Shown piece by piece: positions 9,643 through 14,681 of a DNA stretch of 14,880 nucleotides (its first letter is position 1; each line of letters begins with the position of its first letter). Under the pieces are notes generated by a model. It ran no database searches, was not told the origin of the DNA, and saw only the letters and a list, made by a program, of their open reading frames with translations. The position numbers were made by a program, and so were the translations under genes. This DNA comes from Candidatus Zixiibacteriota bacterium (GTDB lineage: Bacteria > Zixibacteria > MSB-5A5 > GN15 > FEB-12), in assembly GCA_041742355.1 (NCBI GenBank), contig JBGSIV010000173.1, forward strand, positions 1 to 14,880, in the 5' to 3' direction.

Positions 9643-9825
9643 CAGACGTAGGTCAGGCTCCTTGGAGCCTGACAAGGCAAAGCAATCGTAGGGCACGACC
9701 CTTTAGCGGTCGTGCCTCTTTTCATGTATGGGGTCGCCCACAGCTTGCTGTGGGATCCGTTAGACCCTGGCCGCAGGTCGTGCCTCTTTTCTTGTAGGGC
9801 AGGAGCCCCTCGGCTCCTGCCATTA
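9643..9825 (+). repeat. Mosaic REP cluster copy 1 (GTAG-hairpin families C-B-A-D)
   Basis: GTAG-GTCAGGCTCC-TT-GGAGCCTGAC (9648-9673); GTAG-GGCACGACC-N7-GGTCGTGCC (9688-9716); GTCG-CCCACAGC-TT-GCTGTGGG (9733-9754); GTAG-GGCAGGAGCC-N4-GGCTCCTGCC (9794-9821). Confidence 0.88.
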
Positions 9826-10048: not shown

Positions 10049-10963
10049 ATGAAAACAGCAAAGGGATTCATAACCGCCGCCGCTCTTGTCGCACTATTCT
10101 CGCTGCTTGTGTCGTGCCAGAAAGAGGCCGATGACTCAGCCGACGCCACGAAGGACACCATGCAGAACGCCTCGGTCATGATCGATTCGGCCATCTCCAC
10201 CGACAGCGTCCCGATCTACTACGAGGTGCACGGCTCCGGGGAACCGGCGCTCGTATTCGCCCACGGCTGGGGCATCAACGGCGGCTTCTTCAACCACCAG
10301 ATCGAAGCGTTCGACGACTCGTTTACCGTGATCGTGATGGACCTGGCCGGGCACGGCCGGTCGGGGCACAACCGCACCGGCTGGGGGACATCGAAATACG
10401 CCGCCGACATCAACGCCGTGCTCGACGCCGCGCAGGTGAATCAGGCGGTGCTCTTCGGGCACAGCATGTCGGGCGTGTTCGTGGCGGCCGCCGCCGCGGC
10501 AAAGCCGGAACGGATACTCGGCGTGGTCGGGATTGACACCTACCAGAGTTTCCGGGAGAGCTACCCCCGCGCCCAGGTTGATTCGTTCCTTGCGCCGTTC
10601 CGCGTTGATTTCGATTCCGCCGTGGCTGAATTTGCCTGGATGATGCTTCCGAAAACAACTGATACCGCCGTGGCGAACCGCATTATCGCCGAGTTCCGCC
10701 GGGGGGATCAGGAGCCGCTAATCGAAACACTCGACAGCCTGCTGTCGACCGATGCCTCGTCGATATTTGCGTCGCTGCAAGTCCCGGCGCGCGCGATTAA
10801 TGCCGATACGTACCCGACCCAGGTGGACAGCAACCGCACCCTGGTGCCGTCGTTCGACGTGAAAATCATGCAGGGCGTGGGGCATTTCCCGTTTATCGAA
10901 CGGCCGGAGGAGTTCAACCGGCTGGTGCGCGAAACGGTGGCGGAGCTGCAAGCAGGGAAGTAG
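10049..10963 (+). CDS. Alpha/beta-fold hydrolase lipoprotein
   Basis: Lipobox LVS-C; HGWG oxyanion motif; DLAGHGRS; GHSMSG nucleophile elbow; GVGHFP catalytic His; GGGAGAG RBS. Confidence 0.9.
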   Translation: MKTAKGFITAAALVALFSLLVSCQKEADDSADATKDTMQNASVMIDSAISTDSVPIYYEVHGSGEPALVFAHGWGINGGFFNHQIEAFDDSFTVIVMDLAGHGRSGHNRTGWGTSKYAADINAVLDAAQVNQAVLFGHSMSGVFVAAAAAAKPERILGVVGIDTYQSFRESYPRAQVDSFLAPFRVDFDSAVAEFAWMMLPKTTDTAVANRIIAEFRRGDQEPLIETLDSLLSTDASSIFASLQVPARAINADTYPTQVDSNRTLVPSFDVKIMQGVGHFPFIERPEEFNRLVRETVAELQAGK

Positions 10964-10974
10964 CTCGGCTAGGT

Positions 10975-11193
10975 ATAGGGCACGACCCTTCAGATCAGAC
11001 GTAGTTCAGGCTCCTTGGAGCCTGACAAGGCTAACCACACGTAGGGCACGACCCTTCAGCGGTCGTGCCTTGTCTTCTGATGGGACCTGCGAATACGAGT
11101 ACCCCACAGCTTGCTGTGGGATCCGTAAGACTCTGGCCGCAAGTCGTGCCTTGTCTGTTTGTAGGGCAGGAGTCCCTCAGACTCCTGCCATTA
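10975..11193 (+). repeat. Mosaic REP cluster copy 2 (truncated B, then C-B-A-D)
   Basis: Half B at 10975-10993; C at 11001-11026; B at 11041-11069; A at 11099-11120; D at 11161-11189. Same order and similar spacers as 9643-9825. Confidence 0.88.
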
Positions 11194-11236
11194 ACCTAAT
11201 CAATCGGCACGAGTACCCCACAGCTGCTATGTACGT

Positions 11237-11242
11237 TGTCAA
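11237..11242 (-). promoter_or_regulatory. -35 box (TTGACA) of the IS circle-junction promoter; the -10 box TATGCT is at 12599-12604 (minus)
   Basis: Joining the two IS ends through one core gives TTGACA-acgtacatagc-AG-taac-TATGCT, a 17-nt spacer. Confidence 0.85.
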
Positions 11243-11259
11243 GGTCATGTTCGAGGTCG

Positions 11260-11449
11260 TGGCGTGAATTCTAACCAGTCTGCTATTCGCGGCCTCGACC
11301 GTAGTCGAGCCGCAGGTAAGGTTTCCGATTGTTTTCACGTCCGGGGCGGCATACTTGCTGACGTGGCCGGGATCTCACCCGCCACAGCTGTGGGTACGCC
11401 GCACCCGGGAGGATCTATGATCCAGAATTCTTTGCCATTACCGATCGTC
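11260..11449 (-). ncRNA. Predicted bridge RNA / seekRNA of the IS110 element
   Basis: Two stem/internal-loop/stem modules: a target-binding loop at 11341-11408 with guides CCCACAGCU and CAGCAAG, and a donor-binding loop at 11263-11339 with guide AUAGCAG and a cUACGg tetraloop. G-U pairs are compatible with the minus strand. Exact RNA ends are unknown. Confidence 0.82.
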
Positions 11450-12508
11450 CTACGCCGCCGCCTTCAGCACGTACGGGCGCCCGTCCAAGACCACCCGCCG
11501 GCACCGCAACAGCAGCCGCCGGGCGACCGCCACGATGGCCCGCTTGCTCCCCGAACGAGGCAGCACCCGCCGGTACACCGCCCCCAACTCCGCATCGCGT
11601 CGCACCGCCACCCACGATGCTTCCACCAACAGCCCGCGCAGGTAGCCCTTGCCCACCCGGCTGATCCGGCCCAGCCGCACGTGCTCGCCGCTGGAGTACT
11701 GCGACGGCGTCATTCCCACGTAGGCCGCCAGATCATCGCCGTGGCTGAACCGGCTCATATCGCCCAACTCCAACAGCAGCGCCATGGCCGTCACCAGGCC
11801 AATCCCCGGCAGACTCGTCACCCACTGGAACGCGTCCCGGTAGCGCTCGTGCTGCGACAACACCCGCAGCAGGCGGGTCTGGGCCGCCACCTGCTCGCGC
11901 ACGAAGACATACTCTTCCAAAAGCCGGTGAAAGCTCGCCTGGGCAAACTCATCCCCCACCGGCAGCTGCCACAACCCGTCCAGCCACCGTTTCGACCAGC
12001 GCCCGGTGCAGCCGCTGATATCGATGCCGTAGAACATCAGCTCCGCTTTGATCCGACTCTGCAAACGCACCCGATCCCCCAGCAGCTGGCAGCGCCGCCG
12101 CAGCACCTGGCGGTGTCCCCGCAGCTCGGGGTCCGGCACCCAGTTCGCCCGCAAAAGCCCTCGCGACAGCAGCAGAGCCAGCTTCCGGCTGTCCCGCTTG
12201 TCGGTCTTGACCCGATTGCCGTACTCCATCGGGACCAGGCTCGGCGGCGTCACCACCGCCTGCGCGCCCCAGCGAACAAGCGCGTCATGCAAAGTGTACC
12301 CGAAGTATCCCGCCTCGTACACCACCGTCGTCTGCGCCGGACGGTAGGCCCCCAAAAGCCCAAACAACGCGACGCTGCCGGCCGGGATGCTGCCGGTGAA
12401 CAGCTCCACCTCCTCGGTGCGAATCGTCACGTGCCACTGCTTCAGATGCACATCCACACCCACAAAAATCGCCTTGTCCTGAATCGCTTCTGCGTCGTAC
12501 CTTCTCAT
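11450..12508 (-). CDS. IS110-family DEDD transposase/recombinase (352 aa)
   Basis: AGGAGG RBS before ATG 12508. RuvC-like DEDD residues in VGVDVH, VVYEAG and KTDKRDS; SLPGIG; YVGMTPSQYSSG (catalytic Ser loop); GRISRVGKGYLR; AIVAVARRL. Confidence 0.95.
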   Translation of the reverse strand: MRRYDAEAIQDKAIFVGVDVHLKQWHVTIRTEEVELFTGSIPAGSVALFGLLGAYRPAQTTVVYEAGYFGYTLHDALVRWGAQAVVTPPSLVPMEYGNRVKTDKRDSRKLALLLSRGLLRANWVPDPELRGHRQVLRRRCQLLGDRVRLQSRIKAELMFYGIDISGCTGRWSKRWLDGLWQLPVGDEFAQASFHRLLEEYVFVREQVAAQTRLLRVLSQHERYRDAFQWVTSLPGIGLVTAMALLLELGDMSRFSHGDDLAAYVGMTPSQYSSGEHVRLGRISRVGKGYLRGLLVEASWVAVRRDAELGAVYRRVLPRSGSKRAIVAVARRLLLRCRRVVLDGRPYVLKAAA

Positions 12509-12655
12509 CTGAGCCTCCTGGTCGCTGAGGGTCTTGTCGTTACGGTTGTGATTCACGACAAGATACCCGTGGCGAACAGAGGCTCAACTAATACCCGTAG
12601 CATAGTTACTTGCTGTGGGACAGCCGAGGTCATAGCCAGTCACATGAGTAAGAGA

Positions 12656-12677
12656 GTAGCCCACAGCTTGCTGTGGG
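12656..12677 (+). repeat. REP family A (GTAG-CCCACAGC-TT-GCTGTGGG), downstream of RAYT
   Basis: Perfect 8-bp hairpin with a 5' GTAG tetranucleotide. Confidence 0.9.
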
Positions 12678-12719: not shown

Positions 12720-13229
12720 CTACAGCGAGGGCGGCCTCCAATCGTCAAGTTCGATCGGAACCGGGCGAACACCATGGTACCAATTGTAGCTCGACCAGCA
12801 CCACTCCCCTGGCTCTGCCACTAAACCGCGCCGCACCGGATTGCTGTGGCAGTAGTGCACTTTGGTTCGAACGACCTCAAGTGAACGGCAATTGTGATCG
12901 AAACACCGTCGATTCCAAAAGACGTGTTTGGCACAGACTTCTGTGAACGGAGGACAGGACTTGAAGTAGGCGATTGCAGAGCGAGACTTGATTTCTCCGA
13001 CGATCAGACCAAGCCGCTGACCTTGGCACGGAATGAGAACAAGATGGACGTGCTCTGGCATGACGACATACCCGATGAGCTTGAAGCCATGTTTCTTCCG
13101 CACCAGCGCCAGCGTTTCAAGGAAGATTTCAATTACAACCGGGTCGGAGAGGAACGGCAAGTACCGGTAGCAGCAGAAGGTTACGAAACGAGCCGTATCA
13201 CAATCGTCGTAATGGCGGAGCCGGGTCAT
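12720..13229 (-). CDS. REP-associated tyrosine transposase (RAYT/TnpA-REP, Y1 HUH family)
   Basis: ARFVTFC, VVMPEHVHL (HUH), FWNRRCFDH, YCHSNPVRRGL (catalytic Tyr + NPV), WCWSS. Flanked by inverted REPs and not accompanied by tnpB. ATG at 13229 is preferred, because the longer ORF-track start lies inside a REP. Confidence 0.9.
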   Translation of the reverse strand: MTRLRHYDDCDTARFVTFCCYRYLPFLSDPVVIEIFLETLALVRKKHGFKLIGYVVMPEHVHLVLIPCQGQRLGLIVGEIKSRSAIAYFKSCPPFTEVCAKHVFWNRRCFDHNCRSLEVVRTKVHYCHSNPVRRGLVAEPGEWCWSSYNWYHGVRPVPIELDDWRPPSL

Positions 13230-13252
13230 TGTCAATACTCGTACTAAGGGAT

Positions 13253-13274
13253 CCCACAGCAAGCTGTGGGGTAC
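13253..13274 (-). repeat. REP family A, inverted copy upstream of RAYT
   Basis: Minus strand GTAC-CCCACAGC-TT-GCTGTGGG. Confidence 0.9.
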
Positions 13275-13379: not shown

Positions 13380-13401
13380 CCCACAGCAAGCTGTGGGCTA
13401 C
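13380..13401 (-). repeat. REP family A, second inverted copy upstream of RAYT
   Basis: Minus strand GTAG-CCCACAGC-TT-GCTGTGGG. Confidence 0.9.
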
Positions 13402-13430: not shown

Positions 13431-14681
13431 TCACGACTCTTTCGACAACCCCTTCCTCCTCTCCAGCCTCTCCCTCCTCCGCACCAACGCCTTTCGGCGG
13501 GCAGCGGTCAGCCCCGGCCACCTCTCGGCACAGCGCGTGTGCTCCAGCGCCGCAGGGTAATCACGGAGCTTGTGCTCGCAGTAGACGGCCAATTCGAGCC
13601 GGGCCAGGAAACCCTCGCGAGAATCGAACTGCGTCAGGTGCTGCCAGAGCCTGACCGCCTGCTCGTACTCCCCCGTCCGCTTGAACGCCATCGCGTGGAA
13701 GAGGAGGATGTCGGGCGGGAGTGACTCGCCGGGGAGCAGGTGGTCGGAGCCGATGTCAACCACCCGCCGGTTGAGGTCAATCACGTTCGGCAGATCGCGA
13801 CGCCTCCCAAACACGCGCGACAGCGAGTGTAAATCGTCGATGGCGTCAAGCCTCTCCCCTTTCGATTCGAACACCTCCGCCAATATTGTCGCAAGGAAAT
13901 ACAGCGAGACGACATCGTGCCGGTTGTGCTCGAGAACCTTCTCCATGTCATCGAGCTTCTGCCCGGTCAGCCAGTCGAAGAAGACCGACGGCACGAGGAA
14001 ACCGGGGATATCATCGACACGATGGAAACCGAACACCTCGCGTTCGATATTGCCGAGACTGCAATCGCCCAGGCGCCGTCGGAAGAGGCGACGGACACCG
14101 TGAAGCAGATCGATATGGCGGGCGTGGGGGATTTCGCGGCCGACACGGTTGACGATGAAGCGGTCGCGCAGAATCGGCAAATCGAACGCGGCGCCGTTGT
14201 AGGAGGCGAGGACAGTCCGGTCAGTGAATTCCTCGGACACCGCTTCGAGCATCGCGGTCTCGTCTTCGTAGTCGGGCAGAAGATACTGGCGGACCTCGAA
14301 GCCGTATTCTGTCAGAGAGCCGGTTCCGATGAGAAAAGCGGCCGCGCCCGTACCGCCGAGGCCGATCGTTTCGAGGTCGAAGAAGACGACCTTGTCCAGC
14401 GAAACGAGTTCGGGATCATCGCCGGAGGTGTAGGCCAGCGCGGGCAGATGGGTGCGATCGAGCAGGTCGGCCAGGGCGATATCGCCGTGGCGGTAGGTGT
14501 CGGTGCAATGGTAGCGACTGAAGCAGTAGTTGCCGGATCGTCCGCAGACCAGTTCCATTCCGAGCCGCTCCGACAGGAGGCGGTAGCGATCCGGGACGTC
14601 TGCTGGCGGTTTCGCCGCCGGCTTGGTCACGACCAGGTTGCGGACGAGGTCGAGTTTACTGTGAAGGCTCCTTTTGGCCAT
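13431..14681 (-). CDS. YprB/MrfB-like RNase H-fold (DEDD) exonuclease with C-terminal TPR-like helices
   Basis: FFDLETIGLGG, SYNGAAFDLP, HIDLLH, SLGNIEREVFG..RVDDIPG, HNRHDV, and a TPR-like C-terminus (LELAVYCEHKLRDY..AL). Confidence 0.85.
   Translation of the reverse strand: MAKRSLHSKLDLVRNLVVTKPAAKPPADVPDRYRLLSERLGMELVCGRSGNYCFSRYHCTDTYRHGDIALADLLDRTHLPALAYTSGDDPELVSLDKVVFFDLETIGLGGTGAAAFLIGTGSLTEYGFEVRQYLLPDYEDETAMLEAVSEEFTDRTVLASYNGAAFDLPILRDRFIVNRVGREIPHARHIDLLHGVRRLFRRRLGDCSLGNIEREVFGFHRVDDIPGFLVPSVFFDWLTGQKLDDMEKVLEHNRHDVVSLYFLATILAEVFESKGERLDAIDDLHSLSRVFGRRRDLPNVIDLNRRVVDIGSDHLLPGESLPPDILLFHAMAFKRTGEYEQAVRLWQHLTQFDSREGFLARLELAVYCEHKLRDYPAALEHTRCAERWPGLTAARRKALVRRRERLERRKGLSKES

Follow-up and report, generated by a model that had tools for sequence, protein, structure and literature searches.

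An insertion sequence in REP repeats with a probable two-loop bridge RNA behind its DEDD recombinase gene

The closest described systems are RNA-guided elements of the IS110 family. For IS621, the description by Durrant 2024 (PMC11208160) gives a bridge RNA with an LTG/RTG arrangement and a CT core, and the same source places the bridge RNAs of IS1111-group elements in the right end. The initial annotation of the locus studied here had treated this arrangement, as well as an RNA downstream of the gene in IS1111-type elements, as established, and both are indeed in print in that source. Siddiquee 2024 (PMC11187229) describes IS1111-type seekRNAs in which the top-strand match lies 5' of the bottom-strand match, an order that is reversed in the IS110 type, and reports for the IS1111 family extensions of 7 bp left and 3 bp right of the subterminal inverted repeats. 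REP targeting by such elements is long known, with ISPa11, IS621 and ISPpu9 as described cases (PMC11208160, PMC11187229, PMC12288879). For ISPpu9, an RNA downstream of the transposase gene (Ssr9) is described that is not needed for transposition (PMC12288879).

The window, i.e., the whole stretch of 14,880 nt that was analysed, very probably holds an intact IS110-family insertion sequence (IS) that encodes a two-loop bridge RNA (seekRNA) behind a DEDD recombinase gene. Its architecture is of IS1111 type. The respective features are the following.

11224..12608, minus strand: whole insertion sequence, 1385 bp (one core AG counted; CT on the + strand), delimited by junction comparison and intact REPs
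12609..12619, minus strand: left target half-site CCCACAGCA plus left core AG (12610-12609); 4/4 left flanks in the genome end CCCACAGCA-AG
12509..12608, minus strand: left end, 100 nt; with the core, AGTAACT extension, subterminal inverted repeat (IR) ATGCTACG (12603-12596) and -10-like TATGCT (12604-12599)
11450..12508, minus strand: recombinase/transposase gene, 352 aa; ATG at 12508, AGGAGG at 12518-12513; the listed ORF starts at the upstream GTG 12556
11226..11449, minus strand: right non-coding end, putatively encoding the bridge/seek RNA; fold z -4.28, match of covariance model R1
11341..11408, minus strand: predicted target-binding loop module; outer stem, internal loop and inner hairpin (11385-11363)
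11386..11394, minus strand: 5' guide strand CCCACAGCU (LTG in IS621 terms); 9/9 against the right flank; covaries in homologues
11354..11360, minus strand: 3' guide strand CAGCAAG (RTG in IS621 terms); 7/7 against the left flank; covaries in homologues
11280..11319, minus strand: predicted donor-binding loop module; 5' strand TTAC(CT) 11319-11314, inner hairpin 11313-11289, G, 3' strand AATAGCAG 11287-11280
11224..11242, minus strand: right terminus; -35-like TTGACA (11242-11237), IR CGTACAT (11235-11229), AGC (11228-11226), core AG (11225-11224)
11216..11223, minus strand: right target half-site CTGTGGGG; CTGTGGG follows the core in 4/4 right flanks of the genome

The ends were fixed within the element's own draft genome (310 contigs). 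Here, a DNA search found three further left and three further right ends, located at contig ends, and exact 20-mers confirm four left and four right junctions. In transposase sense, the left flank ends with ...CCCACAGCA-AG while the right flank begins with AG-CTGTGGGG; given the junctions, the element is therefore 1385 bp long (12608-11224), with a non-coding right end of 224 nt plus core (226 nt) and a left end of 100 nt. All four copies sit between CAGCA-AG and AG-CTGTGGG, i.e., in the same REP (CCCACAGCAAGCTGTGGG as host of the element); neither the position nor the orientation relative to the asymmetric REP centre differs between them. The flanks rejoin to an intact REP with one AG and no other duplication. 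The ends of the four copies are 99-100% identical over 130-139 nt, where one copy is fully assembled and the remaining ones are seen as ends. A circle junction was not found in the assembly.

The window contains 5 intact copies of the 14-mer CAGCAAGCTGTGGG and the 4.37-Mb draft genome 79, compared to 0.06 expected from composition. Including the core, the terminal extensions are AGTAACT (7 bp, left) and AGC (3 bp, right). The subterminal repeat of the window (ATG(C)TACG / CGTACAT) is short, with 7 nt and a 1-nt offset, while relatives reach 9-11 perfect bases.

Further repeats and a second transposase gene surround the element. Various hairpin repeats, the REP among them, form a composite block at 9643-9785 and again at 10996-11151, on either side of an alpha/beta-hydrolase gene (10049-10963); the two blocks are 92-94% identical, and the IS interrupts a further REP just past the second one. 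On the other side, 12720-13262 (minus strand) encodes a REP-associated tyrosine transposase (RAYT; NF047646 with 90.8 bits vs. a cut-off of 80; Pfam Y1_Tnp). Those REPs are presumably spread by this transposase. The RAYT gene is flanked by two inverted copies of the REP targeted by the IS (12660-12673, minus strand; 13257-13270, plus strand), one of which is 40 nt from the IS. A further REP at 13384-13397 lies between the RAYT side and a 416-aa ORF (13431-14681, minus strand) that carries an RNase_H_2 superfamily domain (PF13482, E 5.7e-35) and has no NCBIfam match. Joints of 11120-11128 to 12646-12659 in contigs of sequencing runs were considered as empty sites and rejected: given extra letters in between and short sides, they look like REP-to-REP assembly joins.

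The minus strand from 11408 to 11341 reads CCGGGTGCGGCGTAC-CCACAGCT-GTGGC[GGGTGAGATCCCG]GCCAC-GT-CAGCAAG-TATGCCGCCCCGG. The initial annotation had described this part as an outer stem, an internal loop and an inner stem; letters and coordinates are as claimed, and the fold agrees. That is, the 68 nt of 11341-11408 fold (ViennaRNA) with an MFE of -40.9 kcal/mol (z -4.11), and 1/200 shuffles folds as well. For the whole 3' end (11224-11449; a fold of 11226-11449 had been suggested as a check), we find -87.7 kcal/mol (z -4.28) with none of 200 shuffles being as stable. The loop strands are CCCACAGCT at 11394-11386 and CAGCAAG at 11360-11354 (minus strand). Their combination as CCCACAGCT-N20-45-CAGCAAG is found a single time in the window, and none of 200 dinucleotide shuffles contains it.

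Both strands can be read against the flanks of the element. CCCACAGCU is the reverse complement of AG-CTGTGGG, i.e., of the core and the right flank of the transposase-sense top strand. CAGCAAG is identical to the top strand CAGCA-AG (left flank and core) and therefore pairs with the bottom strand. With 9 and 7 nt and the 2-nt core common to each strand, the guides cover the 14-bp site CAGCA-AG-CTGTGGG, which agrees with the 14-nt target proposed earlier; likewise, the element flanks bear out the assertion that the loop strands spell the insertion site CCCACAG-CT-TGCTG (+ strand). All 16/16 guide positions of the window match its own target, and none of the other targets among the 32 compared reaches this score. 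Since the REP target is palindromic, the two guide strands are partly complementary in the free RNA, and such guide-guide pairing could compete with target binding. In the MFE fold, a GCU pairs with an AGC between the guides (11386-11394 and 11354-11360).

Homologues were collected by scanning one genome per species. Of the 455 relatives obtained, the top 80 were retained, corresponding to 79 loci; almost all of these come from MAGs of uncultivated lineages, the labels of which include Zixibacteria, Ignavibacteriota, Latescibacterota, Deltaproteobacteria, Desulfobacterales, KSB1 and Calditrichia. Among these best 80 of 455 relatives, the closest is 77% identical and labelled Zixibacteriota; many 352-aa relatives of the recombinase are present in metagenomes. 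Seven multi-copy sets allowed element ends to be taken from the comparison of copies. Six of them were read for guides together with the window, and one (IgnA) was set aside, its left boundary being not yet fixed. The six sets differ in target but keep the AG core, and in each of them the RNA shows the corresponding strands in the same location, for example:

ZixA: target CCGCA-AG-CGGGTGG, 5' guide CCACCCGCT, 3' guide CCGCAAG
Lat2: target GGCTC-AG-GATGACA, 5' guide TGTCATCCT, 3' guide GGCTCAG
dPIX: target TGGCA-AG-CTGTAGA, 5' guide (CG)TACAGCT, 3' guide TGGCAAG

For the larger set, ends were called by a rule that combines the conserved motif of the second loop with AG-N4-TATG on the left and, ahead of the right end, a box similar to TTGAC. 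Applied to the 79 loci and the window, this yielded ends for 47 and both flanks for 45 elements, which dereplicate to 32 elements with 30 different 14-mers; 35 skip entries (loci or matches with ends not callable by the rule) were left out. We scored guide-target agreement in two ways. The position-free score takes the best 9-mer and 7-mer located 20-70 nt apart (maximum 16). Here, cognate combinations reach 14.0/16 on average vs. 10.93 for non-cognate ones (sd 0.89; 978 pairs; 32 elements), no permutation out of 10,000 reaches the observed sum, and the own target is strictly best in 17/32 elements. When scoring the non-core positions in fixed columns (covariance model R1, alignment A4), cognate pairs show 8.70/12 vs. 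3.37 (sd 1.80) for non-cognate pairs, and 0/100,000 permutations reach the observed sum. The initial annotation had named absent guide/target covariation in homologues as a refutation; such covariation is found, with 32 elements, 30 targets and 0/10,000 permutations. It had further interpreted the hairpin as a target-binding loop, and this reading is upheld: the strands match opposite target strands, overlap at the core, and their equivalents change with the targets in homologues.

Misfits in the fixed columns (3 to 6 of 12) are L019, L034, L050, L064, L066, L069 and L072. A one-base register shift (guide-CT, then T) is present in L027, L036, L064, L065, L066, L069 and L072; the lower fixed-column scores of these shifted elements are due to this shift, and their position-free scores are 12-16/16. 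L019, L034 and L050 stay at 11/16 in the position-free score and may be off-site insertions or have wrongly called ends. For L019 (about 1410-2764; 5/12 in fixed columns), the guides predict TGGCA-AG-CCGTGGG, while the flanks read CAGCA-AG-CAGCCAT. L008, a contig of a Zixibacteriota MAG, encodes a 77% identical transposase and the same two guide strands as the window. On the left it is flanked by CTCACAGCA-AG, which resembles the REP of the window, an indication that related genomes have both the element and the REP family in common.

Downstream of the first module, a second one has the same build. Its 3' strand relates to the right end: with the core counted, the element terminates on the right in ATAGCAG. 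Within CGAATAG[N]AG, the variable base is that of the right end ATAG[N]AG in 47/47 elements (28 C, 12 G, 7 T), an agreement that reflects only few independent changes because the homologues are related; the right end was chosen without reference to this base. The 5' strand, with an additional base preceding the final T at the core, is complementary to left-end positions 2-5 in 26/37 elements (31/37 with wobble) and tracks the left-end variants (GTAA-TTAC, GCAA-TTGC, GTGG-CCAC, GTTA-TAAC, GTCA-TGAC). Having a target loop and a second loop in agreement with the termini of the element, the RNA thus qualifies by its sequence as a complete bridge/seek RNA with two loops. A candidate outer stem of the donor module (GAAT.CC / GGATTC) is paired to 59% in the MAFFT alignment (A2) and to 62% in the model-fitted alignment (A4), and a shifted pairing of CGTGAA (11339-11334) with TTCACG (11268-11263) is possible in the window.

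The stems of both modules were assessed in two alignments. In the MAFFT alignment (41 sequences), 82.2% of the cells are paired vs. 38-43% when the 3' partners are slid; 21/28 pairs show changes on both sides, and 0/500 shuffles reach the covariation score. In a narrower realignment (A3), the outer stem was truncated on its 5' strand in several sequences, and A2 was used instead. The model-fitted alignment (54 hits), the figures of which lean towards structure by construction, has 83.7% paired cells (vs. 35-48% with slid 3' partners), changes on both sides in 25/28 pairs and again 0/500 shuffles reaching the score; its helices 1, 2 and 4 are paired to 93, 85 and 87%, respectively, with 20/22 pairs changing on both sides. 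For the individual stems, MAFFT values with model-fitted ones in second place are 92.1% and 93.4% for the outer stem of the target loop (8/10 pairs compensatory in MAFFT, 8-9/10 across alignments), 85.7% and 84.7% for the base of its inner stem, and 85.4% (7/8 pairs compensatory) and 86.8% for the donor hairpin. RNAalifold alone recovers the outer stem and part of the donor hairpin only.

Covariance model R1 matches the window at 11245-11427 (110 bits, E 6e-31), a match by construction since the window is among the 41 sequences from which the model was built. Across 57 sources, all 54 hits of R1 lie behind the gene and have its orientation. Within the draft genome of the window, the four IS copies account for every R1 match, and solo copies of the RNA are therefore absent there. 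Directly after the right end of a related element (L018:2770-2904), we observe a partial second match (51 bits) that comprises the donor loop without the target loop and that may be left over from an earlier element or represent a solo RNA module. A scan of the window with Rfam 15 at gathering scores gave 0 matches, and a permissive scan of 11180-11480 (E up to 10) gave two chance-level matches (sobemo_FSE and MIR7486) far below their gathering scores. That is, no bridge-RNA family is among the Rfam matches; a match to a curated family is not a defining feature of the bridge RNA class.

The gene start is set to the ATG at 12508 because the homologues are 352 aa long. The protein matches PF02371 (E 9.7e-26) and PF01548 (E 1.3e-10), both above cut-off, and the NCBIfam model NF033542 ('IS110 family RNA-guided transposase') with 218.7 bits vs. 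a cut-off of 140. In an alignment of 34 homologues, D19, E65, D103, D106, S272 and S273 are invariant. They comprise acidic residues and the conserved serine of the G..P....SG motif, presumably the counterparts of the catalytic residues of IS621. GMTPSQYSSG of the window aligns to GLTPRRYESG of ISCro4, and KTDKRD to KTDAVD. Compared to solved structures, the protein is matched by ISCro4 (E 2.1e-13) and IS621 (E 2.7e-12), mainly in the C-terminal domain. The element had been called intact, which is in line with the full-length 352-aa ORF scoring above the NCBIfam cut-off and with four copies whose ends are 99-100% identical.

In a comparison with 72,556 plasmids, the highest identities are 33-36%. 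IS4321/IS5075, classical members of IS1111, show 22% identity over 84% of the length, and an ISEc45-family gene 31.9%. Judged by these identities, the clade is distant from the named elements compared. The description as 'probably uncharacterised' thus fits, the closest plasmid-borne relatives being at most 36% identical.

With joined ends, TTGACA (11242-11237) is 17 nt from TATGCT (12604-12599). This spacing and a TATG.T box are present in 31/32 elements, where the conservation of the -35 box is partly circular because it is part of the right-end calling rule. A promoter scan found 0 promoter-like (sigma-70-like) sites in the linear element. One terminator-like site is located in the element, on the + strand, and a U-tract terminator was not found after the hairpins on the minus strand. 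These observations fit the hybrid junction promoter described for the family and suggest that the RNA would stem from the long transcript of the circle.

Four sequencing runs were compared, all of them as contigs, so that starts, ends and strand are unreadable. The stretch was not found in any run on record as RNA. One possible RNA run (X20) contains a 254-nt contig (12261-12513) and a short, mostly non-matching piece (11756-11788), with the RNA region uncovered. Among the metagenome contigs of X1, the element forms its own unitig with a depth of 46.6 vs. about 7 for the flanks, which is a weak hint only. From the published mechanism of the family, we infer that the RNA would be transcribed, processed and bound by the protein, that the element would form circles with an active junction promoter, and that it may be active at present.

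The likeness between hairpin and REP could have an origin other than guidance. In the RNA, CCACAGCTGTGG is a perfect palindrome that shares AGCTGTGG with the REP on the same strand, and REPs are abundant here (79 copies). The hairpin might thus be a REP-like palindrome inside the element, i.e., a captured or remnant target and no guide, which resembles the site only by its REP origin. We assign a negligible probability to this. The conserved hairpin separates the two matching strands, of which one reproduces the right flank in reverse complement and the other the left flank directly; such a split is not expected of a captured target. The same split is found in relatives with non-palindromic targets (e.g., L029, L020 and L048 at 15-16/16), and the central AAG of the REP is in the 3' strand only. 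Given the guide/target covariation in both the position-free score and the fixed columns, a captured REP appears strongly disfavoured. It is very improbable, too, that the structured 3' end mainly stabilises the mRNA, terminates transcription or acts as a regulatory sRNA like Ssr9 of ISPpu9. Its position directly after the stop codon would suit such a role, for which a dispensable downstream sRNA in a REP-targeting IS110-family element is a described precedent (PMC12288879). However, no U-tract terminator was found after the hairpins on the minus strand, and the loop sequences change along with target and donor, the stems being preserved through compensatory changes. The latter pattern is not predicted for a terminator or a translational regulator.

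A different question is whether a genuine bridge-RNA element is still at work, since the window could hold a fossil copy with a readable but idle guide, i.e., a member of the family that is no longer mobile or does not make its RNA. The lack of a promoter-like site in the linear form, the absence of the stretch from the runs on record as RNA, the possible RNA run without the RNA region, and the fact that one copy only is fully assembled would all be compatible with this. We nevertheless consider it unlikely: the ends of four copies are still 99-100% identical over 130-139 nt, the ORF is full-length with all family-invariant residues present, and the guides match the target at 16/16 positions. 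The depth of the element's own unitig in X1 (46.6 vs. about 7) points in the same direction, as a weak hint only.

The preferred explanation is thus an IS110-family element with a two-loop bridge RNA, and the recombinase is real and, from its sequence, probably active and RNA-guided. The shown part of this explanation consists of what was compared, i.e., the anatomy, four insertions at the same site and in the same orientation, guide/target and guide/donor covariation, and the paired stems. In the first loop, CCCACAGCU would pair with the transposase-sense top strand of the target right of the cut, and CAGCAAG with the bottom strand left of the cut. Both would include the core dinucleotide and thereby specify CAGCA-AG-CTGTGGG, the centre of the genome's REP repeat. 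By analogous pairing, the second loop would recognise the ends of the element as joined in the excised circle. The recombinase would excise the element as a circle, the junction of which would place the -35 box TTGACA of the right end at 17 bp from the -10 box TATGCT of the left end. From this hybrid promoter, transcription would proceed through the gene into the RNA, and the RNA-protein complex would recombine the circle into another REP at the AG core, without target duplication.

More tentatively, the element may belong to a separate, deep clade of IS1111-like bridge recombinases with a compact RNA (about 130-180 nt) and a target longer than that of IS621, which we deem possible but doubtful. 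The RNA would then consist of two copies of one module (guide-CT, GTGG...CCAC, G, guide-AG), with a 14-bp target and a 7-nt second guide. If this were true, the 30 natural targets would provide, ready for use, a reprogramming series for genome-editing recombinases of a new family, and the element would be a parasite of the adjoining RAYT/REP system in this genome.

The system is of the kind described in 2024 (Durrant 2024; Siddiquee 2024) and not a new mechanism; what is known about the mechanism is unchanged by the finding. It shows that a bridge-RNA guide is readable directly from raw sequence. About 30 related elements, the loop strands of which track about 30 targets at single-position resolution, form a natural reprogramming series. 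For tool builders, they represent a group of distant orthologues, with at most 36% identity to relatives on plasmids, that has a 14-bp target and a short RNA after the gene. With regard to genome biology, an RNA-guided element uses one REP family as its landing pad (79 free and 4 occupied sites) and adjoins a RAYT gene.

Among the known systems, ISPa11, ISEc11 and ISKpn4 as described by Siddiquee 2024 (PMC11187229) share with the window a DEDD transposase of about 340-350 aa, a long non-coding region downstream of the gene, subterminal IRs with 7-bp left and 3-bp right extensions, and insertion without target duplication. Also as here, in the window and equally in the homologues scored, the RNA strand matching the top strand is placed 5' of the one matching the bottom strand. 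Like the window's element, ISPa11 targets REPs (those of P. aeruginosa; PMC11187229), and for ISEc11 a junction promoter is reported (PMC11187229), while the joined ends show a candidate hybrid promoter here. On the other hand, the inverted repeat of the window is shorter than the 11-13 bp usual for IS1111 members, and the protein is distant from the members reached (22% identity to IS4321/IS5075). Furthermore, unlike the named IS1111 members, elements of the window's type are hosted by uncultivated Zixibacteria-like and other environmental lineages.

With IS621 (Durrant 2024, PMC11208160; structures 8WT6 and others), the window's RNA has in common the two internal loops for target and donor, each with one strand per DNA strand overlapping in a CT/AG core, as well as a REP target and a hybrid promoter at the circle junction, the latter being predicted here (PMC11208160). 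In contrast, the RNA of IS621 is described upstream of the gene in the left end, while it lies downstream here, and the IS621 gene has the same orientation as the CT strand, to which the gene is antisense here (PMC11208160). The IS621 target is given as 11 bp, with a nine-base LTG and a four-base RTG (PMC11208160), compared to 14 bp and a 7-nt second guide in the window. ISPpu9 and ISPpu10 of Pseudomonas putida KT2440 (PMC12288879) are likewise IS110-family elements inserted at AG inside REPs, and ISPpu10 is described to form a strong hybrid junction promoter (PMC12288879). For ISPpu9, the same source places the bridge RNA before the gene and reports the downstream Ssr9 as dispensable (PMC12288879), whereas here it is the downstream RNA that carries the guides.
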